Virus record (IMG/VR): IMGVR_UViG_3300029288_000110
Location: 37,759-101,758 of that record
Strand: one strand, 5' to 3'
DNA: 64,000 bases
Origin: a virus
Taxonomy: Duplodnaviria; Caudoviricetes
The position numbers and the translations under genes were made by a program. This document shows positions 1,277 to 64,000 of the stretch, in pieces. Every line of letters starts with the position of its first letter. Position 1 is the first letter of the stretch. The notes under the pieces are model-generated. The model saw only the letters and a program-made list of their open reading frames with translations, searched no databases and was not told where the DNA came from.

Positions 1277-1541
1277 TCTCTTTCTTGATAGCATTGGTTA
1301 CTCGCCATAGGTCGGCGGCATCCGCATTAAGGGCACTTTCGGCTTTCATGGCTCGCTCTGCCCATCGGTGTCTATTCCCTACCAGACAGGGGATACATTC
1401 ATACATTGTGCCGACTTCAAGGTAGTCTGGTGGTTTGCCAGCTTGTGGATGTGGATTCTTAGACATCTGCAACCCACATTTGGCACATAGTTTTGGCTTC
1501 GTTTCCACGCCCTTCGCCGAATTATCATTTTGTGTGTTCAT
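1260..1541 (-). CDS. small Zn-ribbon protein; its 3' end runs into the ISL3 IRR (probably truncated)
   Basis: AGGAGG RBS; CAKC and CIPC pairs. Confidence 0.6.
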   Translation of the reverse strand: MNTQNDNSAKGVETKPKLCAKCGLQMSKNPHPQAGKPPDYLEVGTMYECIPCLVGNRHRWAERAMKAESALNADAADLWRVTNAIKKERLSGV

Positions 1542-1556
1542 TTGCTCTTTCCTCCT

Positions 1557-1571
1557 GTTTGCCGAATAGCC
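1557..1571 (-). repeat. 15-bp exact inverted copy of the putative ISL3 left end (GGCTATTCGGCAAAC)
   Basis: Reverse complement equals 59679-59693. Confidence 0.75.
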
Positions 1572-1639
1572 CATAAATTTCCCCTGGGTACATTCGCAAA
1601 AGACCATATTTTGACAATTTGGTTTTATGTTTCATCTTA

Positions 1640-1667
1640 ACCTCCTACTGTATGTGGGATACTTACC
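1640..1667 (-). mobile_element. left end of a GGTAAGTAT-type gene cassette (partner end outside window)
   Basis: 28 bp identical to 5384-5411 (GGTAAGTATCCCACATACAGTAGGAGGT on minus strand). Confidence 0.8.
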
Positions 1668-3841: not shown

Positions 3842-4696
3842 TCACTCCCAGTCCTTTAAAAACGGATGGTATTTGAATATTTCTGCATCAACCTCCGGCA
3901 TCCGGGGAGTGGTGTAGATATTCATCATTCCGCCGCCGGCCCACCGCAAGAACTGATACACCCTTGTCTGGTCCAGGATACGCTTCCCATCCGCCCCCCT
4001 TAACTCATCCAATACCGTCGCCAGGCCATGGCGGACACCGTGGTAGCATTTTTTAGGAACGAATTTCACCCCGGCGACATTAGCTATCTCATGAAAAATG
4101 GAGAAGCGGCGATTATACCCCACGGGAGGATAAGTGTATTTGAACACAAAGGGGGCGATTTGCTCCGGCACGTCATGCTCCCGCAGCATACCGCCTTTCT
4201 CCGTATGGATGATGATGGTTTTCTTATACGGATGAATATCTTCCGACCGGACGCCAAAAAGTTCTCCGACCCGAAGGCCATATGTTGTCGAGAGCGCTAT
4301 GGTGTTCAACCACTGGGGATTGGAGCTCTTCTTGGCAGTCAGTATGAGCGCCCGGATTTCTTCCGCACTGTAGGAAAAGCGTGAGGCGAGGTCAATCATC
4401 TGCCGGTTCACCTTGGGCAGCTTCACCGGCACCCTTAGCCCATACATGCGGAAGAGGCAGCCTATCGGACCCCTGATGATGTAGTTTACATACGTTTGGT
4501 CTCGATTCTTCTTCAGATAGTCGAGATAGGTATAAAGCACATCACGCTCCTGCCAGTTCTTTCCCTTGAGCCAGGTGAAGTAATCATCCACATGCGCCCT
4601 GTACTGGCTCTTGGTCGATTCGCTATAGTACTGGATTTCGTGCTCTAGCTCTTTAAATATGGACTTCCTGTCTGTTGGTATTTTTTCCGTAGTCAT
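3842..4696 (-). CDS. tyrosine recombinase/integrase
   Basis: Catalytic residues in GLRVGE (R), EKGG (K), HGVRH, LRW and IYT (Y). Confidence 0.9.
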   Translation of the reverse strand: MTTEKIPTDRKSIFKELEHEIQYYSESTKSQYRAHVDDYFTWLKGKNWQERDVLYTYLDYLKKNRDQTYVNYIIRGPIGCLFRMYGLRVPVKLPKVNRQMIDLASRFSYSAEEIRALILTAKKSSNPQWLNTIALSTTYGLRVGELFGVRSEDIHPYKKTIIIHTEKGGMLREHDVPEQIAPFVFKYTYPPVGYNRRFSIFHEIANVAGVKFVPKKCYHGVRHGLATVLDELRGADGKRILDQTRVYQFLRWAGGGMMNIYTTPRMPEVDAEIFKYHPFLKDWE

Positions 4697-4712
4697 TACT
4701 ACTCCTCTACCC

Positions 4713-4925
4713 TCAGCGTTTAAAAGTCTTCCTCTCATGCGGTTTCTTCCGCTGGTAAGTAGCCTCCAAGGAAGTCATCTTGGGATTCCAGTGATAATCA
4801 ATCACCATCACATCACAACCCAGTTTCTTCCTGATAGCGCTTGTAACAGCGGAGGACCCGCACCCGGGCGCCTCATCAAATTCCTCCATGGTTATAGTTA
4901 TCTTTTCCGTATCAATATATTTCAC
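4713..4925 (-). CDS. hypothetical protein
   Basis: ORF with GGGAG RBS between the tRNA and the integrase. Confidence 0.6.
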   Translation of the reverse strand: MKYIDTEKITITMEEFDEAPGCGSSAVTSAIRKKLGCDVMVIDYHWNPKMTSLEATYQRKKPHERKTFKR

Positions 4926-4937
4926 TTTTCTCCCTTT

Positions 4938-5025
4938 TGGCGGAGCGGGAGAGATTTGAACTCCCGGGAGCAGGCCCCAACGGTTTTCGAGACCGCCGCC
5001 TTAAACCAGACTCGGCCACCGCTCC
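4938..5025 (-). tRNA. tRNA-Ser(CGA)
   Basis: Cloverleaf GGAGCGG...CCGCTCC-GCCA, anticodon loop CTCGAAA, long variable arm, encoded CCA. Confidence 0.93.
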
Positions 5026-5035
5026 AATATTCTTT

Positions 5036-5411
5036 GGTAAGTATACCTTCATCTACAGTATTTCTTGAAATTGGCCATAATCCTCATCTTCAAGTTCTGC
5101 CATCTCTGAATCAGTCTCGAATTGGCAATTTTCGCATAGTCCACTTTTGTTGAAATCGAAAAATTCGTTGCCGCCCCAAAACTCACCACACATCCAACAA
5201 AAGCCCTCTGAATGGCAATGTTCGCCGCAATACCAAGATATATCATATGGCTTTTCGCTTGATTCCCAATCAACTAACCTACATTGGATGGTATCAAAGG
5301 AGCTGCAACCTTCATGTTCACAACGATGATTGACTTCAACTAACTCTCTCTGAATCATATCGCCAATTTCTTTAATCATTTCGACCTCCTACTGTATGTG
5401 GGATACTTACC
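5036..5411 (-). mobile_element. non-autonomous single-gene insertion cassette (376 bp)
   Basis: Ends GGTAAGTATCCC / GGTATACTTACC; perfect 8-bp direct repeat TATTCTTT at 5028-5035 and 5412-5419. Confidence 0.88.
5053..5379 (-). CDS. Cys-rich acidic Zn-binding protein (cassette cargo)
   Basis: CEHEGC, CGEHC, CWMC and CENC motifs; RBS supplied by the cassette end. Confidence 0.75.
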   Translation of the reverse strand: MIKEIGDMIQRELVEVNHRCEHEGCSSFDTIQCRLVDWESSEKPYDISWYCGEHCHSEGFCWMCGEFWGGNEFFDFNKSGLCENCQFETDSEMAELEDEDYGQFQEIL

Positions 5412-5890: not shown

Positions 5891-6004
5891 TTAGCTTTCG
5901 TCATCATCTTCCTCTTCGTAACCGGCGCATAAACAACCATCTACAGAGCAAGAGCCACTAGGTTTATCATGGTCTTCCGGTGCGTGTCCGCAAGTACAAG
6001 CCAT
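5891..6004 (-). CDS. 37-aa Cys/His Zn-binding peptide (MACTCGHAPEDH...CSVDGCLC)
   Basis: Hand translation; below the ORF-track cutoff. Confidence 0.5.
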   Translation of the reverse strand: MACTCGHAPEDHDKPSGSCSVDGCLCAGYEEEDDDES

Positions 6005-6374
6005 CGCCTATTCCCCCTTCTTCTTTTCTTGCTTCTTCAATGGACTTTTGATTTATTGCTCTTTGGTAGGTGTAAATCTTAGATAAAATGCCATTTGCAT
6101 CCTCATAGGCATATTTTTTCAACCATTCAGGTGCCTTAGACCATGACTCAAAACAGTTGTCTGAATAGCTATATTTATATCTATCCCAAATATGTTTAGC
6201 AATCTTTTCCTTCACCTTTTTATCTATTGGTCGTTTAGTTAGAAACGTTAAAAACATCTTTGAATACTTTTGGTAATAGGAAAAATCTTCACAGGAACTA
6301 GTACAAAACTCCCACGAATTTTTACAGTTATTACAAGGACAACATTCTTTGGCTAAATCATCTTTTAATGTCAT
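5967..6374 (-). CDS. hypothetical protein, Cys-rich N-terminus
   Basis: 135-aa AT-rich ORF. Confidence 0.6.
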   Translation of the reverse strand: MTLKDDLAKECCPCNNCKNSWEFCTSSCEDFSYYQKYSKMFLTFLTKRPIDKKVKEKIAKHIWDRYKYSYSDNCFESWSKAPEWLKKYAYEDANGILSKIYTYQRAINQKSIEEARKEEGGIGDGLYLRTRTGRP

Positions 6375-8970: not shown

Positions 8971-9576
8971 TCAGTATGTATGTTTTGTCAAGATAGGCAC
9001 GGAAGCAAAGGGTTGCATAAAAGACTGGCCGGTTTGCTTCGCCAGGTTAAACTTATCCAGATTCTCTGCCGTTTGACCAGATTTTATTTCAAACAATAGC
9101 TTTGTCACTATCTTATGACATTTCACACATAAGGGAAGAAGGTTCCACCATACGTTGTAAGGAGTGACAACCCTTTTTGAGCCTTCGAGCGGAATGATAT
9201 GATGCACCTCAAGGTTGGTGCGGAAATGATACCTATCAAGTTGTACTTCCTTTTCCTCTTCTCCGCAGAACGCACAACGGTAACCATATCGCCGGAGAGC
9301 CCACCTGGAAGCATCGCTCCACCAGAAGAAAAGGTTATAAAATCTTGAACAGGAAATATAATCCCCATGGGACTTTTCCGGGCAATATCTTCGGGCGTAA
9401 TTACTGCTGGGAAAAGGTTTGCCGCACCAAAAGCAACCTCCCTGGCCTTCAAACCCGGTAATGATAGAGAATTTCCCGTATCTGTCTTTTCCTTCGGCTA
9501 TAGGCCATTTGACAAGTTCCACTACGCTCCGAGGGTAATTCCCTTCAATGGACTCTAAATCTACCGGATAGTTCAT
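8971..9576 (-). CDS. HNH endonuclease
   Basis: CAFC...EVHHIIP...NLLPLCVKCH. Confidence 0.85.
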   Translation of the reverse strand: MNYPVDLESIEGNYPRSVVELVKWPIAEGKDRYGKFSIITGFEGQGGCFWCGKPFPSSNYARRYCPEKSHGDYISCSRFYNLFFWWSDASRWALRRYGYRCAFCGEEEKEVQLDRYHFRTNLEVHHIIPLEGSKRVVTPYNVWWNLLPLCVKCHKIVTKLLFEIKSGQTAENLDKFNLAKQTGQSFMQPFASVPILTKHTY

Positions 9577-10073
9577 ATCTCACCTGCCTGATATTTCACT
9601 AAGGGGACATCATAAGCGATATAAAGTGGATGCTTCGGCTGACCGTCAGCGTTAGTCCCTAGGCAATATGGTTCTTTGAGCATCTGGAAAACCGCCGGCG
9701 CCCGTTTTTTCACCGGCTTAAACGAGCCCCATCCGCAGAGTTGGAGGTCCGACATCTGTATCATCAAGTGGAGGAAAGAATCGTTATACTCCCCAACGGC
9801 ATCAGGTTCGACAAGAAGCACCTTTGGGTCGCTAGACACTAAAGCATATAGGTTGGCCATGAGGAGGCCGCCAAAACCCATCCTGTCGGCTCTCACCACA
9901 ACCCGGGTAATCGTTGGGTCTGTTTTCACCTCATTGGCCGTTGAAGGATTAAGACCGATGACCATCAGGACGGGCCGGATGGAACTCCACATACGCCAAA
10001 GGGCATAGCGGTATTTCCTGTCATCGGAGAAAACGGCACCCTGGGGAAGGGTTAAATCAATACCTCTCATCAT
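9573..10073 (-). CDS. DUF1643 family protein
   Basis: YRYALWR, GLNPSTA..DPTI, G.PKHPLY. Confidence 0.9.
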   Translation of the reverse strand: MMRGIDLTLPQGAVFSDDRKYRYALWRMWSSIRPVLMVIGLNPSTANEVKTDPTITRVVVRADRMGFGGLLMANLYALVSSDPKVLLVEPDAVGEYNDSFLHLMIQMSDLQLCGWGSFKPVKKRAPAVFQMLKEPYCLGTNADGQPKHPLYIAYDVPLVKYQAGEI

Positions 10074-10273: not shown

Positions 10274-11166
10274 ACTGAGTTCCTACCCTCCTCAATATTC
10301 CATACAGATTGAGAGCATCTTTTGGCAGAAAGCTCTGCATATTTCTTACTTAACTCAATCCCGATACACTTCCGACCTAACTTTTTAGCTACTAAAGCCG
10401 TGGTGCCTGAACCAAGAAAGGGGTCAAGTATAATAGCATTGCTGCTACTAGCGAATATTTTTATTAACCTTGAGGGTATTTCTCCTGGAAATACCGCAGG
10501 GTGGTATTTATCTCGGCCCGGCTCCACAAACCAGACATCTTTTGTTTCATCTGCAAAAGGCACGGCTTTCTTTCCTCTTCTCCCAGTCCCGCCGGAATGA
10601 AACCATTGGTATTTTGAACCTAGAAGTATTATCTCGTGTGCAGGACGCATATAAGGGTCGGAGTCACATCCCATAGCGCAAGTTGTAGTTAATCCTATAG
10701 CTCCCTTCACCCATACGATTGGCTCCCGAACATGAGCATCTAATTCCATCATCATTGAAAATAGGCGGAATCCTAAAGGTTCAAGCCTTGCTTTTCCTTC
10801 CGTCTTCTCTTCTTTACGATGACTTTTGTAAGATGCATCATATCCGAACCAGGTATTAGCATAAAGATGGTCCCGTTGCCACCGGACAACGAGAGGAACA
10901 TTTATTCCAATCGTACCCCCTTTAACTAAAACCCGATAACATTGTTTTAAAACAATGTTCATCTTTTGATAATATTCCGCCCAAGATAATTGGTCACGAA
11001 AGCCACTATATTTCATCCGGGTGTTATACGGAGGAGATGTCGGTATTAAATCTATACAATCGGGTGGGATGGCGGGCAATATTTCCGTAGCATCACCATG
11101 TATGATATAAACGAATTCATCCGAATATATTGCGGAAGGAAGGTCAAGACTATTCCAAATTGACAT
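10270..11166 (-). CDS. N4-cytosine/N6-adenine DNA methyltransferase (beta class)
   Basis: TSPPY, HPAVFP, LDPFLGSGTT. Confidence 0.93.
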   Translation of the reverse strand: MSIWNSLDLPSAIYSDEFVYIIHGDATEILPAIPPDCIDLIPTSPPYNTRMKYSGFRDQLSWAEYYQKMNIVLKQCYRVLVKGGTIGINVPLVVRWQRDHLYANTWFGYDASYKSHRKEEKTEGKARLEPLGFRLFSMMMELDAHVREPIVWVKGAIGLTTTCAMGCDSDPYMRPAHEIILLGSKYQWFHSGGTGRRGKKAVPFADETKDVWFVEPGRDKYHPAVFPGEIPSRLIKIFASSSNAIILDPFLGSGTTALVAKKLGRKCIGIELSKKYAELSAKRCSQSVWNIEEGRNSV

Positions 11167-34817: not shown

Positions 34818-35789
34818 ATGTCTCTGAGAAACGTAAAGCTCTATAGCTATACCAGCCAAGTACAGATGGGTGGGTGGTGCAGCATTGTGTTAACCTTCGA
34901 TTATCTGGGCGGAGGAGCCCAGATAGAAACGTATTGCGCAATCGGAAACAATGGTATATTTGGTTTCAATGAGGTTATAAGCGCCAGCAATATCCGTGAT
35001 ATTCCCAGTGCTTCTTCATGGACAAAATTTTTCGTCTCGGCGTTAATTAGAATAACAGAAGAACTCGACCCAGCAAAAATCTATGATGTGTATGGAAAAG
35101 TCAGAGAAGTAGGTGGTGGGTGGAATATCTCTGATATTGCGGTAGATGCCGTATGGTTTGCTGGGATGGAAAGGGAAGACCAAACACTTGAAATAGATGT
35201 CTCTCCGGCAGATGGTGGATATGTTATCACAAATCCTGCAAGTAATGAGGGGAAGTCCAACTGGGTGAACGGTAATACGGGGACATTCCCCTACGGAACG
35301 GATGTTATAGTAAGAGCTGTCCCGTACAGTGGATTTAAGTTTGACCACTGGAGTGATGAGATTGTGGGTGGAGTAAGCACGAACAATCCGGCCCATGTTC
35401 AATCCATGACAGAACATCGGGCGATTAAAGCCCATTTTGTTTCGGAAACCGCTGATGAAGAGAAACTTATCATCAGCATTACCCCGACTGGAAAGGGTAG
35501 CGTAACGGCGTCTCCTCAACCCAATCATATTATCAGTAATGATTGGTATTACACTTATGGGACTATCGTTACTCTTACCGCTCACCCTATCAGTGGGTGG
35601 AAATTCAAAAAGTGGTCTGATGAGATATCCGGTGGCGTAAATACCTCCAACCCTGCACAGGTATCGGCCATGACGGAAACACGCACTGTTCTTTGTCACT
35701 TTGAAGAAATCGATGACGGAGGTAGTGATGATGGTGGAGGTGGTGATGGAGAATTCGATAATTTATCTGTAAAGATTAAGAGGGCTTGA
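34818..35789 (+). CDS. protein with two InlB B-repeat-like domains
   Basis: YGT.V...A.P..G.KF..WS twice. Confidence 0.8.
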   Translation: MSLRNVKLYSYTSQVQMGGWCSIVLTFDYLGGGAQIETYCAIGNNGIFGFNEVISASNIRDIPSASSWTKFFVSALIRITEELDPAKIYDVYGKVREVGGGWNISDIAVDAVWFAGMEREDQTLEIDVSPADGGYVITNPASNEGKSNWVNGNTGTFPYGTDVIVRAVPYSGFKFDHWSDEIVGGVSTNNPAHVQSMTEHRAIKAHFVSETADEEKLIISITPTGKGSVTASPQPNHIISNDWYYTYGTIVTLTAHPISGWKFKKWSDEISGGVNTSNPAQVSAMTETRTVLCHFEEIDDGGSDDGGGGDGEFDNLSVKIKRA

Positions 35790-35814
35790 CAAACGAAAAG
35801 GACTACATTAAACT
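35786..35814 (+). promoter_or_regulatory. sigma70 promoter of the putative capsid operon, overlapping the upstream TGA
   Basis: TTGACA-17-TAAACT. Confidence 0.65.
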
Positions 35815-35958
35815 AGGGTCGATGGTCCCCCGACGGGGGGGCAGAGGATAAAACTTAATAGGCGGGATGGCGCTCTTCCGTGAGGAAGGGGAAAAAGGCC
35901 ATCCCGCCTTTTCTTTTCTCCAGGAGAGCGCTACCGCCACCCAAGAAGGAGGAATCTC
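35815..35958 (+). promoter_or_regulatory. structured 5' leader with terminator hairpin and alternative helix
   Basis: 12-bp stem 35860-35871/35898-35909 plus U tract; alternative partner at 35923-35938. Confidence 0.6.
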
Positions 35959-36333
35959 ATGGGTAAGATTGAATGGAAAAACGTATTGGTGGGCGTAGGG
36001 GTAGGCGGTGCAGACGAAGTGCTCGGTTACTGGGATGAAAAATCCGGCAGAACGGGCCTTGGGACCGCCGTTAACATCGGGCGTGCCGCAATGGTAGCGC
36101 TCGGTGCCTTGGGCGTAGCGACCGGCTATTTCCATAAATATGCCGAGCCCGTCATGAATGCTGCGACCCCCCTGCTTACCAAGTCCGTTATCCAGGCTAT
36201 CCGCAACCAGGTGAATTCCGGCGCCACTACTGCTCGTCTCAGCCAAATGAATATCCCTTCCCGCAGGGTTATGTCAAGAGGCACAATATCGAGCGCAGGC
36301 CCGGGCTTTGAAAACTTACCGCCTATTTACTAA
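35959..36333 (+). CDS. putative major virion membrane protein
   Basis: Strong AGGAGG RBS; Gly/Ala-rich hydrophobic helices; basic tail. Confidence 0.7.
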   Translation: MGKIEWKNVLVGVGVGGADEVLGYWDEKSGRTGLGTAVNIGRAAMVALGALGVATGYFHKYAEPVMNAATPLLTKSVIQAIRNQVNSGATTARLSQMNIPSRRVMSRGTISSAGPGFENLPPIY

Positions 36334-36403
36334 AGGCAAGAGCATCCACTAGGAAATATTTAACCCAGTGGAATTTGTATAGCTACCCAAGGAGGTACAT
36401 ACA

Positions 36404-36988
36404 ATGGAAAATCTGACTTATGTTATTCCTACCGAGGAAATTGCTCTCTCCGAACAGGGACAGCGCCGGCAAGCAGCCATTTTAGCCGGGAAAAATCGTG
36501 CGGCAAAGTTATGGAATCAGCCAATAGGTAACCTTGTTGCCCGTGATGAGGACTATGTTCAGGATTTTATCACCCCCGCAACTCCGGCTCTGGTCGCCGG
36601 CCTGAGCGGGTGGCTCTCCATGCCGTTTGCGGCAGCCGGTGCGTGGTATAGCCTTTTCGCCAACAACACGCCGGCGGCTATCGCACCCGTGTGCCCTACC
36701 AACCAGATATGGGTATTCTACAAGGTCAGCATCCTCACCCTGGCCGGACCCGACCCCGTTAGTATGCTCCAGTTCCGCACGGGCACTGCGGCCAACCTGA
36801 AATACCAGTTCAACCTGGAAAACCTCTACGGGAAACAGGTCCAGGATGGCTACTTCTCCCTGCCAGTAACCTATGAGAACCCGGAAATCGCAACCGTACA
36901 GGCGAGGTCCCGTGTGCTTCTCGGCATTGGGTGCCGCATCAAACTGGGCACCTTCATCATTGAAACCATGCAGACCACGGTGGTCTAA
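36404..36988 (+). CDS. putative single jelly-roll major capsid protein
   Basis: AGGAGGT RBS; flanking hairpins; N-terminal helix then about eight beta strands (fold inferred). Confidence 0.6.
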   Translation: MENLTYVIPTEEIALSEQGQRRQAAILAGKNRAAKLWNQPIGNLVARDEDYVQDFITPATPALVAGLSGWLSMPFAAAGAWYSLFANNTPAAIAPVCPTNQIWVFYKVSILTLAGPDPVSMLQFRTGTAANLKYQFNLENLYGKQVQDGYFSLPVTYENPEIATVQARSRVLLGIGCRIKLGTFIIETMQTTVV

Positions 36989-37042
36989 AAAATAAAGGTC
37001 GAATTTCGCAAAGGTGAGTATTCTGAATAAGGAGAAAATATC

Positions 37043-37501
37043 ATGAGCGGAAAATTAAGCGCACTTTATACCAATACCCTGAACCCGGATTTAGTCCGGC
37101 AGGTGGTCGCACCGGCGGCTGCGGTTGCGGCTTCAGGTGCCGTCCCGCTATGGGGCGCCTGGAGCGACCTCGTACTTCCGGCTGCGGTGCTTTTGCCTAC
37201 CCTTTGTGTAGGTTTCAGCATCGATACCCCGAGCGTGCTGGAAAGCTGGACAATCCAGATAGGCAATGCCAGAGGATATGCTAACGCTGCGGCTGTTACA
37301 GCTGCTGGGGCTGCGGCTATCGCTGCGGCTGCCCGTCAGACACTAAGGACGGAAATCATCACCCTCGTCGGTGCGTATCCCATTTTCTACTTCAAATTCC
37401 CCATTGTGTTTAATCCCGGGGAAGGCATCATCGCCCGTTCCGGCACCGTCGGCGGCACCGATACCATCAACGTCAGTCCTTTCCTAGTAACCGGCTTCTA
37501 A
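37043..37501 (+). CDS. putative jelly-roll virion protein
   Basis: beta-rich; PIVFNPGEGI pattern. Confidence 0.55.
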   Translation: MSGKLSALYTNTLNPDLVRQVVAPAAAVAASGAVPLWGAWSDLVLPAAVLLPTLCVGFSIDTPSVLESWTIQIGNARGYANAAAVTAAGAAAIAAAARQTLRTEIITLVGAYPIFYFKFPIVFNPGEGIIARSGTVGGTDTINVSPFLVTGF

Positions 37502-37625
37502 ACGGAGCGGTTATCAGTTAACGGCCTTGGGGGAAGGAAATACTCTTCCCCCAAGTGGTTAACTTAAAACTAAATAAGCTCCCCGGAGTTCATGTCTCCT
37601 AGAGAGCGAAACGAAATAGGAGGTC

Positions 37626-38216
37626 GTGATGGATAATTTATATAATCCCTACAGTGCTGAGCCGATTGCTCCCATTACCCGGGTAAAAGAAAATCTCGGG
37701 CTATGGACGGGGCAAAAATACGAACCCTTCCGGGTTGATTACATTGAGCCGATTCTAAGGTCTTCACCATATGTAATCGATGTGCTCGCCCTCGTTGCCG
37801 GCGTCACTCAACTCGCAGCCAACTCAGCTGCTCAGGCGCAACTTGTCCCGGCGCTTCAGATGAATACCGGTGAACTTTTCCATGCGAGATGGTATCCACT
37901 GGATGATGTTGAGGGTGGACTCTATCAACTCGCAGGTATGCCGAGAAACAATATGAGAGGCGGGCAATCCCGCACCTCTCTCCAGACGTTGTTTGTTGAC
38001 CCCTACCTTTCTCAGACCACCTTCTGGATTTACGGCTCAACTCCGGCGAAGGATGCCTACATACAGGTATTTAATCCAAAGCCGGTTTTCTGCACTATCG
38101 CCAGGTTCGCCTACTTCGGGTTTCGCTACATCCTCGAAGCCCTGACTGGCATCACCTATACGGGAATTTATCCCAACGTACAAAACATAACTTATCTTCC
38201 TGCTCAGGGTAGATAG
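37626..38216 (+). CDS. putative jelly-roll capsid protein (second MCP candidate)
   Basis: AGGAGG RBS; beta-rich, 196 aa. Confidence 0.55.
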   Translation: MMDNLYNPYSAEPIAPITRVKENLGLWTGQKYEPFRVDYIEPILRSSPYVIDVLALVAGVTQLAANSAAQAQLVPALQMNTGELFHARWYPLDDVEGGLYQLAGMPRNNMRGGQSRTSLQTLFVDPYLSQTTFWIYGSTPAKDAYIQVFNPKPVFCTIARFAYFGFRYILEALTGITYTGIYPNVQNITYLPAQGR

Positions 38217-38228
38217 AAGGAGTATGAG

Positions 38229-38642
38229 ATGGTAATGCTTGAGAATGTAAGAAAAGGTATTATCGGCCCAAATAACAGCCCGGCGGCTGCGAGAGGGTTG
38301 GTAACTTCTACCCTCCTCGGTCCCGACCTCTGCCACCTGCATACGGTTGGCCGGACGGTACGCATCAGGAAGATACTATGGTATAACGCTACCGGCGCTG
38401 CTCGTAATCTTATCTTCGGCACGGTTACCAACATCATACCGGTGGCGCCAGGCACCTTTGTGCCTCTTCTTCCACCCATTGTGGCCGTCAACGGCGTGCA
38501 TGATATGATTACCGAAGCCGAATTGCCCGATGTGGAATTTATACCTGACCGGACAGCGGGGGCTGGTGGTCTGACCGGTGATATCTATCTGATGGCTGGT
38601 GTCGCCGGTGTCCTTGTACGCCTCGAAGTCGAAGAATATTAA
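38229..38642 (+). CDS. putative jelly-roll virion protein (penton candidate)
   Basis: VRIRKILWYN...VLVRLEVEEY beta pattern. Confidence 0.55.
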   Translation: MVMLENVRKGIIGPNNSPAAARGLVTSTLLGPDLCHLHTVGRTVRIRKILWYNATGAARNLIFGTVTNIIPVAPGTFVPLLPPIVAVNGVHDMITEAELPDVEFIPDRTAGAGGLTGDIYLMAGVAGVLVRLEVEEY

Positions 38643-38658
38643 GGTTGGAGGCTAACGC

Positions 38659-38790
38659 ATGGGTGAGCAGATTGATATCTCCAAAATAAAAGGTCCGGAA
38701 ATAAAAGACGCTGGGGCTATCATTGTAATAGTCTCGGGAAATATGACCGTATCATCCTCAGACTCTAAGGTACAGATAGTGAAGAATTGA
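38659..38790 (+). CDS. 43-aa hypothetical protein
   Basis: GGAGG RBS; overlaps the next start. Confidence 0.5.
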   Translation: MGEQIDISKIKGPEIKDAGAIIVIVSGNMTVSSSDSKVQIVKN

Positions 38791-39302
38791 TGCAAAATCC
38801 ATATGTTGTTCAATATCTTGAATCGCTTCATCGCTCCGATGGAAGTTTTCTATGCCTTCCATCAGCGAATCAGATTCTTGTGCCATCCGTCCCGCCTAAT
38901 ACGCTGTTGACTTATAATACAGCTCCGGCTCCTGGTGTCTATGCAGCGATAGGTTATGGGGTGACTTTTGACCATGCTATAGTCCCCGGTTCTTTTAGAA
39001 TGACAATCGTCCAATGGGGTGCCCAACCTATTTCTGGAATACTGACTTCCGACCTTATCGCCAATGGGATTGAATATATCGGATTTGTCACTTCTTCCCA
39101 AAAGGCCGCTAGCTCAATCACTAATATAACACCTATGAATCAGTATCTATGCCTGACGGGATATTATCTCAATATCATTTCTCAGGAAGATTATGTTGAG
39201 GTGGTCAATGCTTTGAGGAAACTCGGTACGGTCGATGCAGTAAAGATACTGAATACAATAGCAGGAGCTAAGAATCCTCTCCCGCCAGAAGGGAGCACTT
39301 AA
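38787..39302 (+). CDS. putative jelly-roll virion protein
   Basis: beta-rich core with C-terminal helix. Confidence 0.55.
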   Translation: MMQNPYVVQYLESLHRSDGSFLCLPSANQILVPSVPPNTLLTYNTAPAPGVYAAIGYGVTFDHAIVPGSFRMTIVQWGAQPISGILTSDLIANGIEYIGFVTSSQKAASSITNITPMNQYLCLTGYYLNIISQEDYVEVVNALRKLGTVDAVKILNTIAGAKNPLPPEGST

Positions 39303-59616: not shown

Positions 59617-59733
59617 ATGCCCTCCTAACTTGGTGAAATCTGAGTTGGGCTGGATGTTGGACTTCCGCAATTAGTTTCGGCTATTCGGCAAACTGTATAG
59701 AAACAGTATAGCATAATATTGTTGTACAGGGTA

Positions 59734-59762
59734 TTGACAAATAGGCAAACAGTGTGTATAAT
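59734..59762 (+). promoter_or_regulatory. consensus sigma70 promoter
   Basis: TTGACA-17-TATAAT. Confidence 0.8.
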
Positions 59763-59790
59763 AGGGTTAGAAAGTAAAGAAAAGGGGGAC

Positions 59791-59913
59791 ATGAAAATGC
59801 AATGCCCAACCTGCGGTAAAACCGCTAAGAGGATTAAGAGCAAGAAGTTCCCCGGCTGGTATTATTGCAATAACCCATCTTGCAATACAACCGCTTTTGA
59901 AAATAAGTCATAG
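59791..59913 (+). CDS. 40-aa Zn-ribbon peptide
   Basis: CPTC...CNNPSC; AGGGGG RBS. Confidence 0.6.
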   Translation: MKMQCPTCGKTAKRIKSKKFPGWYYCNNPSCNTTAFENKS

Positions 59914-59925
59914 GGAGGTAACATC

Positions 59926-60291
59926 ATGGGAATACGAGGACAAGGTAAGTTCACCACAAAGGCATCACGAAAACAAAACGATAAGTTCTTAGAGGAGTTC
60001 AAAACTCACCAATCAACATTCAAACAAGCCGATGTTGTACAAGTAGTCACTAAAGGTTGCGGGACATTCCCCGGACTTATTGTGGCTCGCATTTCAGTAA
60101 TGAGCGGGGAAACTGTCTATTCCGTAGCTGTTACACGCTATGGTGGTCTCTGGATTAAGGGCGACTGGGTTATAGATACCTACTGGAACCCGATTGGAGA
60201 CAAGGCACTTGAGCAAGATTATCCCGGCACGATGGAAGAGATTTTGAGCAAGTTACCAGTAATCAAAGCGTGGCAGGCGTCATTGCAATGA
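59926..60291 (+). CDS. hypothetical protein
   Basis: GGAGGT RBS. Confidence 0.7.
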   Translation: MGIRGQGKFTTKASRKQNDKFLEEFKTHQSTFKQADVVQVVTKGCGTFPGLIVARISVMSGETVYSVAVTRYGGLWIKGDWVIDTYWNPIGDKALEQDYPGTMEEILSKLPVIKAWQASLQ

Positions 60292-60584
60292 CAGACAATC
60301 AAAAGCAGGAAGTCATTAAATTACTAATCGGCTATTATCCTGCTGGTACATACCATGCAATACCAGAAGCCCTATTCCGGCTTGTCCGGCTACATGGCTT
60401 ATCCCTAAAGAAAGCCAAAGAGTTGCTATTAGAGGTTATACGACAAAACGGCTGGAGCATGTGCCCTAGTTCAATAGGAGCAATGACACTAGGAAATGTT
60501 AATGGAATGAGGGGCGAAAAGCGGATATTACAGTGGTACATACGGACTGATTGCTATTACACTCATTTTTATATCCTTAAATAG
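60288..60584 (+). CDS. hypothetical protein
   Basis: ATGA overlap with the upstream gene. Confidence 0.6.
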   Translation: MTDNQKQEVIKLLIGYYPAGTYHAIPEALFRLVRLHGLSLKKAKELLLEVIRQNGWSMCPSSIGAMTLGNVNGMRGEKRILQWYIRTDCYYTHFYILK

Positions 60585-60607
60585 GGTATCATAAAGGAGT
60601 CTTAAAA

Positions 60608-60793
60608 ATGTCTTCACCAAGTAACTACCCTCCCGGAGTATCAGGGTTTGAATTTCAAGTGAACCCGCCAGAGCGCTTACCCAAAGAACCTAGTAAAAGA
60701 CTCAAACCATGCAGTCATGCTATTAGCATTCCATATTGTTCTCATAGAACAACATCTGGTCTTTGCAGAGTAAGATGGTGCGATAAAGCGTAA
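60608..60793 (+). CDS. small Cys-rich protein (SNYPPGV motif)
   Basis: AGGAG RBS. Confidence 0.6.
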   Translation: MSSPSNYPPGVSGFEFQVNPPERLPKEPSKRLKPCSHAISIPYCSHRTTSGLCRVRWCDKA

Positions 60794-60845
60794 CTTATTA
60801 TGCAGGGGGTGACCCCATGCGGGGTAAAATAGATACGAATTTAGG

Positions 60846-61110
60846 GTGGTTACGAGTGGTCAAAACCAGACCAGTTAGCTACGGATGGTCAAACCGATAC
60901 CAGACCGCATTAGCTTTGGTGGTCAAACCGCTTAAAACCAGTCTAGACTTGATGGTTAGCCGGATAGCTTTTTGGCTGACCATGTTTACAAGACTGATTG
61001 TATCAGGGGGAGGGTTACCCTCTACCCCCCGACCCTTAAGCGTAAAAAGTGGGAGAACGTATTTGCTAGGTGCGTATGTGCTGGCAGTAGAAAACCCGTA
61101 TTTGCTGGAA
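60846..61110. repeat. two sets of iteron-like direct repeats separated by a GC hairpin
   Basis: TGGTCAAA at 60857, 60886, 60920; CGTATKTGCT at 61058, 61073, 61097; hairpin at ~61006-61030. Confidence 0.65.
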
Positions 61111-61120
61111 GTGAGAGCTA

Positions 61121-61264
61121 GTGAAAACCTGTAAAGAGCTAAAGTGTGTCTGCTTTGAGTGTCAGACACGGAAGAAAGACAGACCGAAATGCGGTATGTG
61201 TCCTGGGAGAATCGCCAAACCGGATTGTACAGGGCTTACCGTTTGCATTAAAGGGGATAAATGA
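61121..61264 (+). CDS. 47-aa peptide with eight Cys, coupled to the transposase
   Basis: Hand translation; its TGA overlaps the transposase ATG. Confidence 0.55.
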   Translation: MKTCKELKCVCFECQTRKKDRPKCGMCPGRIAKPDCTGLTVCIKGDK

Positions 61265-62541
61265 ACATCTTGAACTTGCCCGACTGGGAAGTCATAGAGC
61301 TTAAAGAGAGCGAGTACGATTACGCTATCCATGCCAAGTACACGCCGGAGCCGACCGCTTGTATCCGATGCGGGGTTATCGGGCAACTATACCGGCATGG
61401 TATCAAGAGGCAACGATTCATGGACTTACCAGTTCACAACAAGCGTGTTGGCTTGATAGTGCATCGGCAGCGTTACCTTTGCCGAGCCTGCAAAAAGACC
61501 AGCTTTCAACCATTGCCGGATGTGGCTGACCACCACTCGTCAACCAAGAGGCTTTTAGCCTACATCGGCAAGGAATCCATGAAGCGTACCTTTGTTGGGG
61601 TAGCCGATGATACCGGAATCCATGAGCGGACTATCCGGCGTTTATTCGCTATCGAGGTAGCCCGATTAGACCAAGAGGTCAAATTCGAGACACCCCGATG
61701 GTTGGGGATTGATGAAGTTCACCTTGTAAAGAAGGCAAGGTGTCTCTTGACCAACGTGGAGCAACGGACTGTCATTGATATGCTGGCAACCAGAACAAAA
61801 GACGTGGTTAGCCGATACTTGTACCGGATGCCCGACCGCCAGTACATCGAGCTGGTGGCTATGGATATGTGGCAACCCTACAGGGACGCAGTAAGGGATA
61901 TTCTACCGCAAGCCACAGTGGTCATAGACCGCTTTCACGTTATCCGGTTAGCCATTCAGGGCATGGACACGATACGAAAGGATACCAGGGCGAGCCTTAC
62001 GGCACGTCAAAGCCGGACACTCAAGCGTGACCGCTATATTCTTTTCCATCGCCGGAGCGACCTTGACGAACAAGACCAGTTCATACTTGACCTGTGGTTA
62101 GGGCAGTTCCCTATGCTTGGCAAGGCGTATCAGTTCAAAGAGGACTTCTGTGACCTCTGGATGGTCAAGGACAGGCAAGAAGCCATAGAGCGGTATGAAA
62201 ACCTTAAGGCGAGCATCCCGACCGAGCTACAGCCCGCCTTCAAGCCTCTGACAACGGCTGTAGGCAACTGGACAGGCGAGATATTCGCATGGTGGGACCA
62301 TCCGGTAACAAACGCTTATACAGAGGCCATAGCAGGGCTTGTGAAGCTAACCAACCATGCAGGCAGAGGGTATTCGTTCAAGGCGATACGGGCAAAGTTG
62401 CTTTACTCTAACCTGCCGACCCCTCACAGACCAGTGTTTGACAGGTCATTGAAAGAGCGACCGCCCTTCATGCCACTGGAAGAAATTATAGATTACGGAG
62501 TTAAGTTTTCCACACTCCGCATAATGTTGGAAGGGGGATAG
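61261..62541 (+). CDS. ISL3-family transposase
   Basis: CIRC/CRAC Zn finger, GIDE, MDMW, DRFHV, TNAYTE. Confidence 0.96.
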   Translation: MNILNLPDWEVIELKESEYDYAIHAKYTPEPTACIRCGVIGQLYRHGIKRQRFMDLPVHNKRVGLIVHRQRYLCRACKKTSFQPLPDVADHHSSTKRLLAYIGKESMKRTFVGVADDTGIHERTIRRLFAIEVARLDQEVKFETPRWLGIDEVHLVKKARCLLTNVEQRTVIDMLATRTKDVVSRYLYRMPDRQYIELVAMDMWQPYRDAVRDILPQATVVIDRFHVIRLAIQGMDTIRKDTRASLTARQSRTLKRDRYILFHRRSDLDEQDQFILDLWLGQFPMLGKAYQFKEDFCDLWMVKDRQEAIERYENLKASIPTELQPAFKPLTTAVGNWTGEIFAWWDHPVTNAYTEAIAGLVKLTNHAGRGYSFKAIRAKLLYSNLPTPHRPVFDRSLKERPPFMPLEEIIDYGVKFSTLRIMLEGG

Positions 62542-62612
62542 TTTGTTTGAATGCATTACACATCATACGCCGGAAAGCCATTAGATTCAGCTAATTCACC
62601 GGATTTATATAT

Positions 62613-63143
62613 GGTAAGTATCCCCCGATAGCCAGTAAAGGAGTGGAATGTTAAGTCAATTTAAAGGAGCCATTTTAGACAATTACAGAAAGCATCGTCT
62701 TTTGCTTTGGAGATTCTGGGATGACAGGCCAAAGATGCTATTTGTTGGTCTTAATCCATCAACGGCGAACGAGCTTCAAGATGACCCGACTATAAGACGC
62801 TTGTGTGACTTCGCCGAACGTTGGGGATACGGCGGTCTATATGCCTGTAATGTTTTCAGCCAGATAACCCCTTACCCCAAAGAGTTACTAGCTGAAACAG
62901 CTATTCATTCCGCTGATATCCATGCTATACAGATGGTTAATGAGCTTGTAGTTTTGGTTGTTTGTGGATGGGGAGACGGGATAGAAAAAGCCGCATATGG
63001 CATTGCCAGAGCTAACACAATTAAGTCACTTTTTAAAGAGCCAATGTGCTTTGGATTAACCGCCAAAGGAAACCCTAAGCACCCTGTACGTCTGCCGAAA
63101 GACACTGAATTAATGGAATACGGGTTATGAAGGGATACTTACC
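62613..63143 (+). mobile_element. non-autonomous single-gene insertion cassette (531 bp)
   Basis: Perfect 12-bp IR GGTAAGTATCCC/GGGATACTTACC; 8-bp direct repeat TTATATAT at 62605-62612 and 63144-63151. Confidence 0.9.
62648..63130 (+). CDS. DUF1643 family protein (cassette cargo)
   Basis: GLNPSTA...DDPTI, GNPKHP. Confidence 0.9.
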   Translation: MLSQFKGAILDNYRKHRLLLWRFWDDRPKMLFVGLNPSTANELQDDPTIRRLCDFAERWGYGGLYACNVFSQITPYPKELLAETAIHSADIHAIQMVNELVVLVVCGWGDGIEKAAYGIARANTIKSLFKEPMCFGLTAKGNPKHPVRLPKDTELMEYGL

Positions 63144-63283
63144 TTATATATTATATATAAGGAAGGAAGTAAGTAAACCTTAAACCCATAGTGCCCTGTG
63201 TGAGTGCGCGAGCGAGCGCGAGAAACAGAGCACTATCACACACCAAGGGGTAAGAGTAACCAAAAACGGGAGGAAAAAAGAAA

Positions 63284-63487
63284 ATGAAACTAAAAAATAG
63301 ACTACACAACCATCCCAAAATGGAGGAACAATTAGGACTAGACAAAGAGCATGTGATTATTGACAGCAAGCTATATGGAGAATTATTGCTGATATTCAGT
63401 GAGTTTGGGGAGTTTGTTTACACAATAGAGACTAAACCTCATTCTGTCCCCTCTCCCCCGCGCTATAATGCAAAACCTGCCCCGTAA
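63284..63487 (+). CDS. hypothetical protein
   Basis: GGAGG RBS. Confidence 0.55.
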   Translation: MKLKNRLHNHPKMEEQLGLDKEHVIIDSKLYGELLLIFSEFGEFVYTIETKPHSVPSPPRYNAKPAP

Positions 63488-63528
63488 AACAGTTTAGCTA
63501 TAGAATTTCCGCAATGCGCAAGAAACAC

Positions 63529-63557
63529 TTGACAAATCAGGCACAACGCCGTAAAAT
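63529..63557 (+). promoter_or_regulatory. sigma70 promoter
   Basis: TTGACA-17-TAAAAT. Confidence 0.7.
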
Positions 63558-63578
63558 CATGGGTAGATTCAACCAGTG

Positions 63579-63610
63579 CGCCCCAGGAGACATCCCGGGG
63601 CTTTTTTATT
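63579..63610 (+). terminator. terminator hairpin upstream of the tRNA
   Basis: GCCCC...GGGGC plus T run. Confidence 0.6.
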
Positions 63611-63622
63611 TATAGGCCTCAA

Positions 63623-63697
63623 CGCAGGGTAGAGCAGTGGCAGCTCGCGGGGTTCATATCCCCGAGGTCGGTGGTTCAACTCCATCCCCTGCTACCA
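63623..63697 (+). tRNA. tRNA-fMet(CAT)
   Basis: C1:72 mismatch, GGG/CCC anticodon stem, CAT anticodon, encoded CCA. Confidence 0.92.
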
Positions 63698-63706
63698 AAA
63701 TCAATC

Positions 63707-63738
63707 AGCCCCGTGCAAACGCCGGGGCTTTTTCTTTG
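63707..63738 (+). terminator. intrinsic terminator
   Basis: AGCCCCG...CGGGGCT plus T run. Confidence 0.7.
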
Positions 63739-63759
63739 CCCACAGAAAGGTTATCTATT

Positions 63760-64000
63760 ATGCCTATTAAACCGGGGCGTCCCTGCCGGCAGCCCGGCTG
63801 CCCCCACCTCGCAAAAGATAGGAGCGGCTACTGCCCGGAACATCTCACCCAGAGCCGCCAGCAGCTGGACAGGGAACGCCCTAACGCCAATCAGCGGGGC
63901 TATAATCACCGCTGGCAGCAGGCCAGCAAACAGCACCTGCGGGAACATCCCCTCTGCCGTTACTGCTTTGAAAAGCAACCGCCCGTCATCCGCGCCGCCG
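63760..64000 (+). CDS. HK97 gp74-type HNH endonuclease (runs off window)
   Basis: Hand translation MPIKPGRPCRQPGC...YCPEH...RGYNHRW...HPLCRYC. Confidence 0.85.
   Translation, partial: MPIKPGRPCRQPGCPHLAKDRSGYCPEHLTQSRQQLDRERPNANQRGYNHRWQQASKQHLREHPLCRYCFEKQPPVIRAA

Follow-up and report, generated by a model that had tools for sequence, protein, structure and literature searches.

The locus and its features

Cassette A is a unit of 531 bp that encloses a single gene, coding for a DUF1643 protein. It lies in the window, that is, the whole stretch of DNA that was analysed, which comprises 64,000 nucleotides and represents the final 64 kb of a 101,758-bp IMG/VR record. This record is linear, is estimated by CheckV to be 97% complete and codes for terminase, portal protein, major head protein, tape measure protein and Dit. 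The positions of cassette A, of its parts and of the related features are given in Table 1.

The unit is bounded by terminal inverted repeats. Their outer 12 bp are perfect, as the sequence GGTAAGTATCCC at 62613-62624 (plus strand) has its exact reverse complement at 63132-63143, and the repeat extends imperfectly to approximately 25 bp, with the next 13 bp (to CCAGTA) agreeing at 8 of 13 positions between left and right. Consistently, a repeat finder run on the cassette returned arms of 32 nt with 81% complementarity. The left end also carries the ribosome-binding site (RBS) of the passenger gene, and the layout in which this site is embedded, GTA-(G/T)GAGG-N3-6-start, is likewise found in cassettes B, C and E of the same contig and in three cassettes from elsewhere that are described below (L084, L243 and L249); full-length elements have it at the end on the passenger side. 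At the other extreme of the gene, the TGA of the passenger (63128-63130) lies within the conserved right end ATGAAGGGATACTTACC, and the right end of cassette A is identical at 25 of 26 positions to that of cassette D (contig 10977-11002). Consequently, the three structural claims of the original prediction hold in detail: the perfect 12-bp inverted repeat and the 8-bp duplication are both located exactly (GGTAAGTATCCC and TTATATAT), the left end supplies the RBS, with AAGGAG placed 4 nt before the ATG, and the stop codon of the cargo belongs to the conserved right end.

The sharing of this right end extends into the coding sequence. In both cassette A (63118-63130) and cassette D (contig 10977-10990), the conserved right end encodes the final Y-G-L-stop of the cargo; similarly, the L084 cargo finishes with Y-C-R-stop taken from its right end, and end-less DUF1643 homologues stop right after ...EEY. 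As the right end thus provides several unrelated cargos with their TGA and the two to three codons before it, cargo and element seem to meet at a constant position.

Neither a promoter nor a terminator was found on the plus strand at cassette A. Because cassette A thus lacks its own promoter and is co-oriented with the neighbouring genes, as are all of the cassettes in the contig (5/5), its expression is presumed to occur by read-through. The left end of cassette A also lacks the TTGACA that is present in most ends of the family; this absence, together with the limited agreement of the subterminal positions mentioned above (8/13), means that the unit may now be a poor substrate for a transposase. 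In turn, the perfect 12-bp ends and the perfect duplication suggest that the insertion is fairly recent.

Table 1. Position of cassette A, its parts and the related features (window coordinates, unless the contig is indicated)
Feature	Position	Strand	Description
Cassette A	62613-63143	+	Complete
Left 8-bp target-site duplication, TTATATAT	62605-62612	.	Exact match to 63144-63151
Left terminal inverted repeat of cassette A	62613-62637	+	First 12 bp perfect, GGTAAGTATCCC
Element-supplied RBS (AAGGAG, 62638-62643) and 4-nt spacer	62638-62647	+	ATG at 62648
Passenger gene, DUF1643, 160 aa	62648-63130	+	ORF; Pfam 2.7e-30; model with pLDDT 88
Conserved right end of cassette A, ATACGGGTTATGAAGGGATACTTACC	63118-63143	-	Terminal 12 bp form the right inverted repeat
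Right 8-bp target-site duplication, TTATATAT	63144-63151	.	Exact copy of 62605-62612
Cassette B	5036-5411	-	Complete, 376 bp; duplication TATTCTTT (plus strand); cargo, 108-aa Cys-rich protein
Cassette C	1277-1667	-	Left end, RBS and ORF; truncated by copy 1 of the ISL3-family element (end at 1276)
Cassette D	contig 10545-11003		Decayed ends; duplication AAAAATGA / AAAGATGA; cargo differs from that of A
Cassette E	contig 35756-36124		Decayed left end; YopX-like ORF (Pfam 1.2e-10)
ISL3-family element, copy 1	contig 36125-39034 (window -1633 to 1276)		Direct copy
ISL3-family element, copy 2	59669-62579	+	2911 bp; ends 33 bp left of cassette A
Resident DUF1643 gene (comparison only)	9573-10073	-	Pfam 8.3e-35; 38% identical to the cargo of A
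Viral element L005			1672 bp; 8-bp duplication GGATATAA
Viral element L006			1502 bp; 8-bp duplication AAATATTA
Viral element L010			1484 bp; 8-bp duplication AAATGTTT

In total, five units of this family were identified in the contig (cassettes A to E), all of which are cargo-only, and a full-length copy is absent. They are found both in the tailed-phage block and in the 61-kb block of the contig. Cassette E has no recognisable right end, and its ORF stops about 15 bp before a copy of the ISL3-family element; if the ISL3-bounded block is taken out, no more than about 60 bp separate this cassette from cassette A. Cassette B is placed 10 bp from a tRNA-Ser gene (window 4938-5025), itself the neighbour of a tyrosine-integrase gene (3842-4738), which indicates that the attachment-site region also took in a cassette.

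Chance occurrence of the repeats

The inverted repeat and the duplication might, in principle, be coincidental features of the TA-rich DNA on either side of an ordinary gene. The 12-bp inverted-repeat pairs alone do occur near the chance rate, as 19 perfect pairs separated by 300-2500 bp were seen against the 11.4 expected from shuffles, and the flank of cassette A is a TA repeat, so that, with such a target, the duplication by itself is weaker evidence than the figure of 1 in 65,536 would indicate. By contrast, when an exact 8-bp duplication on the flanks is also required, a single pair is left in the 101.8-kb contig and none in 20 shuffles. Exact matches to the GGTAAGTATCCC 12-mer number four in the window, when about 0.01 would be expected, and this 12-mer also terminates other cassettes of the contig; the 26-bp right end is common to cassettes A and D; and matching 8-bp duplications accompany about 20 of the 25 tabulated members of the family. 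Additionally, the same ends bound transposase-encoding elements elsewhere (see below), and a chance origin is thus effectively refuted, the probability that we leave to it being negligible.

The ends belong to the IS1595 family

When IMG/VR was scanned with the exact right-end 17-mer, nine matches were obtained, a number close to that which chance alone would give. In three of these nine (L005, L006 and L010), the match could be paired with a left end, and the 8-bp duplications on the two sides agreed. L003, L008 and L011 were discarded as apparent chance matches, and L004, L007 and L009 have family-like subterminal sequence, with the partner end not found in the retrieved DNA. Each of the three viral elements carries a small passenger ORF and a protein of 291-298 aa in which DDE_Tnp_IS1595 (1.5e-39 to 6.4e-47) and Zn_ribbon_IS1595 are recognised, and the left ends of L006 and L010 contain a perfect TTGACA-17-TATAAT promoter.

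The transposase alignment was also used to search bacterial genomes, where it revealed relatives of up to 55% identity in many phyla, in metagenome-assembled genomes (MAGs) of Dehalococcoidales, Anaerolineales, Lacunisphaera, Omnitrophota, Saccharibacteria and others. At about 20 bacterial loci, the transposase gene is located within an element of 1.6-2.4 kb with identical 8-bp duplications; overall, the full-length relatives, viral and bacterial, measure 1.5-2.4 kb. The consensus of the family ends is GGTRANTATCCCTTGACANCANGTA, which cassette A fits over approximately 25 bp, and the terminal 12 bp of cassette A are found identically in the viral element L005 and in the MAGs L190 (Anaerolineales), L200 (Lacunisphaera) and L170 (Dehalococcoidales). 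Full-length elements have a common layout in which the transposase gene is placed beside the left end and the passengers run inward from the right end, behind GAGGCTAA-ATG; among these passengers there are an N6/N4 DNA methylase (2.5e-16) and a ClpP-like protein (2.1e-10).

One of the bacterial loci has a nested arrangement. In L190 (1233-3281), a full-length IS1595 element of 1773 bp, with the duplication AATCAGTA, is inserted in a unit of the same family of only 268 bp, with the duplication CTCTGTCA. This smaller unit has an RBS-bearing end and a short interrupted ORF, and is a candidate small relative.

The contig that carries cassette A was searched for an IS1595 transposase with the L006 transposase as query, and no match was obtained at E<=10, nor did tblastn give any below E=0.36. 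As the ends of cassette A are of the IS1595 type and the contig has no such transposase, the unit is best explained as a non-autonomous mobile insertion cassette (MIC); very probably, it derives from a "transporter IS" of the IS1595 family. The closest transposases recovered come from other contigs, none of them from the same sample or from a known host; since all of them were recovered elsewhere, the enzyme that would act in trans on cassette A is hypothetical.

The neighbouring ISL3-family element

The two copies of the ISL3-family element are direct, 99.9% identical and separated by 61,302 bp. The outer flanks, to the left of copy 1 and to the right of copy 2, both read ATTAGATT, and the inner flanks, TCTCTTTC and TTAGTTTC, differ from each other. 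The flanks look as if a single insertion in the tailed-phage block had been opened by the 58-kb block that lies between the copies, and the pair could be a cointegrate, a recombination product or a consequence of the path that the assembly took across the repeat. Run X5 shows the right end of the element next to another flank, which is the start of the ORF at window 5967-6374. The element is evidently active.

The ISL3 family also generates 8-bp duplications, which raises the question of whether the ISL3-family transposase encoded 33 bp upstream mobilised cassette A. The adjacency of the element, its two nearly identical copies and its different flank in run X5 speak for this origin. Nevertheless, the ends of the element, GGCTATTCGGCAAACTG and GGCTTTCCGGCGTATGA, match those of the cassette in the first GG only and are otherwise unrelated to them, and it is with IS1595 elements that the ends of the cassette agree, over about 25 bp. 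Consequently, cassette A was rejected as an ISL3-derived unit, and its mobilisation by the ISL3-family transposase is considered very unlikely; a MIC derived from an IS1595-family element remains the preferred explanation.

Movement of the cassettes and of the DUF1643 gene

Members of the family have transposed, and the same cargo sits at other sites. For instance, in the viral contig L051 (1769-2499; also in L050), a cassette with family ends, whose cargo is a 218-aa repeat protein, is located inside a DUF1643 gene with the duplication TCTTTTTA on both sides. When this cassette is removed together with one copy of the duplication, the reading frame is restored, and the resulting sequence, ...KPGLLFIGLNPSTANE..., is the family consensus. 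Similarly, at the syntenic position of cassette D, the relative phage G001 has just a 70-bp intergenic spacer. Other cargo-only cassettes were detected in IMG/VR, namely L243, of 463 bp and with AGAAATGA on both sides, and L249, of 370 bp; seven of the nine matches to the left-end pattern were set aside as chance.

The DUF1643 gene itself is also found in other cassettes. L084 and L085 are DUF1643 cassettes of 530 bp, with 77% amino acid identity to A, that occupy another site, with the duplication ATACTTAA, and L086 and L122 are decayed DUF1643 cassettes. Additionally, L081, L082, L083 and L087 carry DUF1643 genes of 73-80% identity with no trace of ends. In a maximum-likelihood (ML) tree, the cassette-borne genes and the end-less genes of this set (73-80% identical) fall in one clade (support 100/99), the cassette A gene is sister to the end-less L081 (support 99/85), and at least three changes of state between cassette-borne and end-less DUF1643 are needed. 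Thus, the phylogeny that the original prediction had suggested as a check finds cassette and non-cassette genes intermixed, and its main proposal, that this is a complete member of a mobile-cassette family moving an ordinary phage gene that also exists without ends, is borne out.

The empty allele of the cassette A site would read ...CACCGGAT-TTATATAT-TATATATAAGG..., without the 531 bp, and the corresponding exact 23-mer, GGATTTATATATTATATATAAGG, has no matches in IMG/VR. Relatives were also sought through neighbouring genes and the terminase, and no close relative that covers the site was found. The 192-aa gene to the left of the ISL3-family element yielded no relatives; those found through the HNH gene reach only 43-47% identity and belong to other lineages; and the terminase search produced one close relative, G001 (87% identity), whose record is 55% complete and ends short of the cassette A site. 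A search of the phage database gave no DNA match. The right junction of the filled site, in turn, was recovered in two runs of another landfill study: contigs of X3 (63107-63948) and X4 (62992-63547) are identical to the window and span the right junction, which places the cassette A insertion in independent samples. The contigs of four other runs contained no joint that skips the cassette and none that bridges the left junction, an absence that proves nothing in Logan contigs.

The existence of two almost equal forms bears on an alternative history, in which a full-length IS1595 element with DUF1643 was inserted and its transposase was then deleted in place, so that the 531-bp unit never moved as such. 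Full-length elements with passengers are known in viral contigs (L005, L006 and L010), and MICs must arise by such deletions at some time. Against this history, L084 and L085 share the architecture of cassette A and differ from it by a single base pair in length (530 vs 531 bp), at a different site and with a different duplication, and near-equal DUF1643 cassettes at two sites suggest that the short form moved or was inherited as a unit. Moreover, the contig has five cargo-only copies and no full-length copy. We therefore regard deletion in place as improbable.

The DUF1643 cargo

The cargo of cassette A has 1361 homologues, the best of them with 80% identity. Used as a single query against IMG/VR, the protein gave no match, and its alignment retrieved from the same database only genes of up to 42% identity (<=42%), none of them with ends around the gene. 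The window also contains a resident DUF1643 gene, which forms part of an operon with a 4-bp overlap with each neighbour and has no cassette ends; a diverged, end-less gene had already been predicted at this place, and its degree of divergence (Table 1) and the absence of ends agree with that description.

The AlphaFold model of the cargo is a confident one and shows a three-layer alpha/beta fold. A search of PDB sequences gave no match, and neither Foldseek nor VIA-align pointed to a clear fold; the longest alignments (124-132 residues) were obtained with uracil-DNA glycosylase (UDG) chains (6ail, 2d3y, 5gn2 and 1l9g), whose Z values of 5.1-5.5 are tied with those of unrelated folds. In the literature, DUF1643 receives incidental mentions only.

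Two further arrangements around DUF1643 were observed in metagenomic sequences. In L091-L109, the gene is flanked, in many contigs, by a hairpin-like GCGTATAAC-N4-GTTATACGC followed by AAAGGAG, and a second group of contigs has AAGTGAGGTATTGTTGAG-ATG on both sides of the gene. Both motifs look like intergenic signals that recur ahead of genes in the phages concerned.

A model for the origin of cassette A

In the model that we favour, with cassette A as a MIC of IS1595 origin, the ancestor would have had a left inverted repeat with a promoter directed to the transposase gene, and passengers that ran inward from the right inverted repeat and took their RBS from that end. Cassette A would have kept both inverted repeats, the RBS-bearing end and the DUF1643 gene, with the loss of the transposase. 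A DDE transposase of the IS1595 type produced elsewhere, with a copy in the host chromosome as its most likely source, would act on the unit during infection or lysogeny; going by the closest ends alone, the host might belong to the Chloroflexota. This enzyme would bind the ends, of about 25 bp, and produce an 8-bp staggered cut in AT-rich DNA, which would leave TTATATAT on both sides of the insertion. Once inserted, the passenger would be translated from read-through transcripts, as in phage morons. We infer both the mobilisation of the unit in trans by a host enzyme and its expression by read-through.

Comparison with known systems

Both MICs and passenger-bearing IS are established concepts, and no new mechanism is involved here. 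According to the account given in PMC3129680, the IS1595 "transporter IS" with passenger genes were described by Siguier, Gagnevin and Chandler (2009, Res Microbiol 160:232). Cassette A shares with these elements the IS1595-type ends, the 8-bp duplication and a passenger unrelated to transposition, but it has no transposase, either inside the unit or in the contig. In PMC3129680 and PMC3281130, MICs are presented as IS ends with passenger genes and no transposase; the type example, from Bacillus cereus, is MIC231 of IS231 (De Palmenaer et al. 2004, Mol Microbiol 53:457). IS ends, a passenger, the lack of a transposase and a presumed mobilisation in trans are common to MIC231 and cassette A. 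By contrast, the parent of cassette A belongs to IS1595 and not to IS4/IS231, the cassette sits in a viral genome, and it consists of a single promoter-less ORF that receives its RBS and its stop codon from the ends of the element.

MITEs are short, non-autonomous elements that derive from IS by internal deletion and are, by definition, non-coding. Cassette A resembles them in its small size, its lack of autonomy, its inverted repeats and target duplications, and its derivation from an IS by internal deletion; nevertheless, it was rejected as a MITE because it carries an intact DUF1643 gene (Pfam 2.7e-30). In mycobacteriophages, MPME1 and MPME2 are elements of about 440 bp with inverted repeats and one small ORF that occupy varying phage sites; their insertion is accompanied by an extra 6 bp, so far unexplained, on the left side, and their copies are near-identical and have one type of ORF (PMC3029335). 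The cassette family differs from them in its 8-bp duplication, its varied cargo and its IS1595 ends.

In the literature searched, no description was found of a varied family of single-gene, promoter-less IS1595 cassettes in viral genomes. Such transposase-less cassettes, served by a host enzyme and expressed by read-through, would provide a concrete route for small accessory genes into viral genomes, and would account for the way in which DUF1643, a gene that is very frequent in phages, turns up at unrelated positions of their genomes. In annotations, units of this type, of 0.4-0.7 kb, should be labelled as IS-derived MICs and not as ordinary phage ORFs.

Finally, the family may be compared with integron cassettes and morons. 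Integron cassettes are promoter-less and have an attC site, with no target duplication, and morons are defined by a promoter and a terminator of their own. Cassette A was rejected as an integron cassette, as it has inverted repeats and an 8-bp duplication instead of attC or an integron integrase, and also as a moron with its own promoter and terminator, neither of which was detected. What it shares with both is the addition of single accessory genes to a genome, which is a functional analogy only. The cargos found so far include DUF1643, a YopX-like protein, Cys-rich proteins and a repeat protein, and, with one end supplying the RBS and the other the stop codon, the element would offer a standard promoter-less slot for unrelated small ORFs. 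Tentatively, then, IS1595-type cassettes might constitute a general gene-cassette system of viruses, integron-like in its effect, in which host transposases would shuttle units between unrelated viruses that share a host, a possibility that we still consider rather doubtful.
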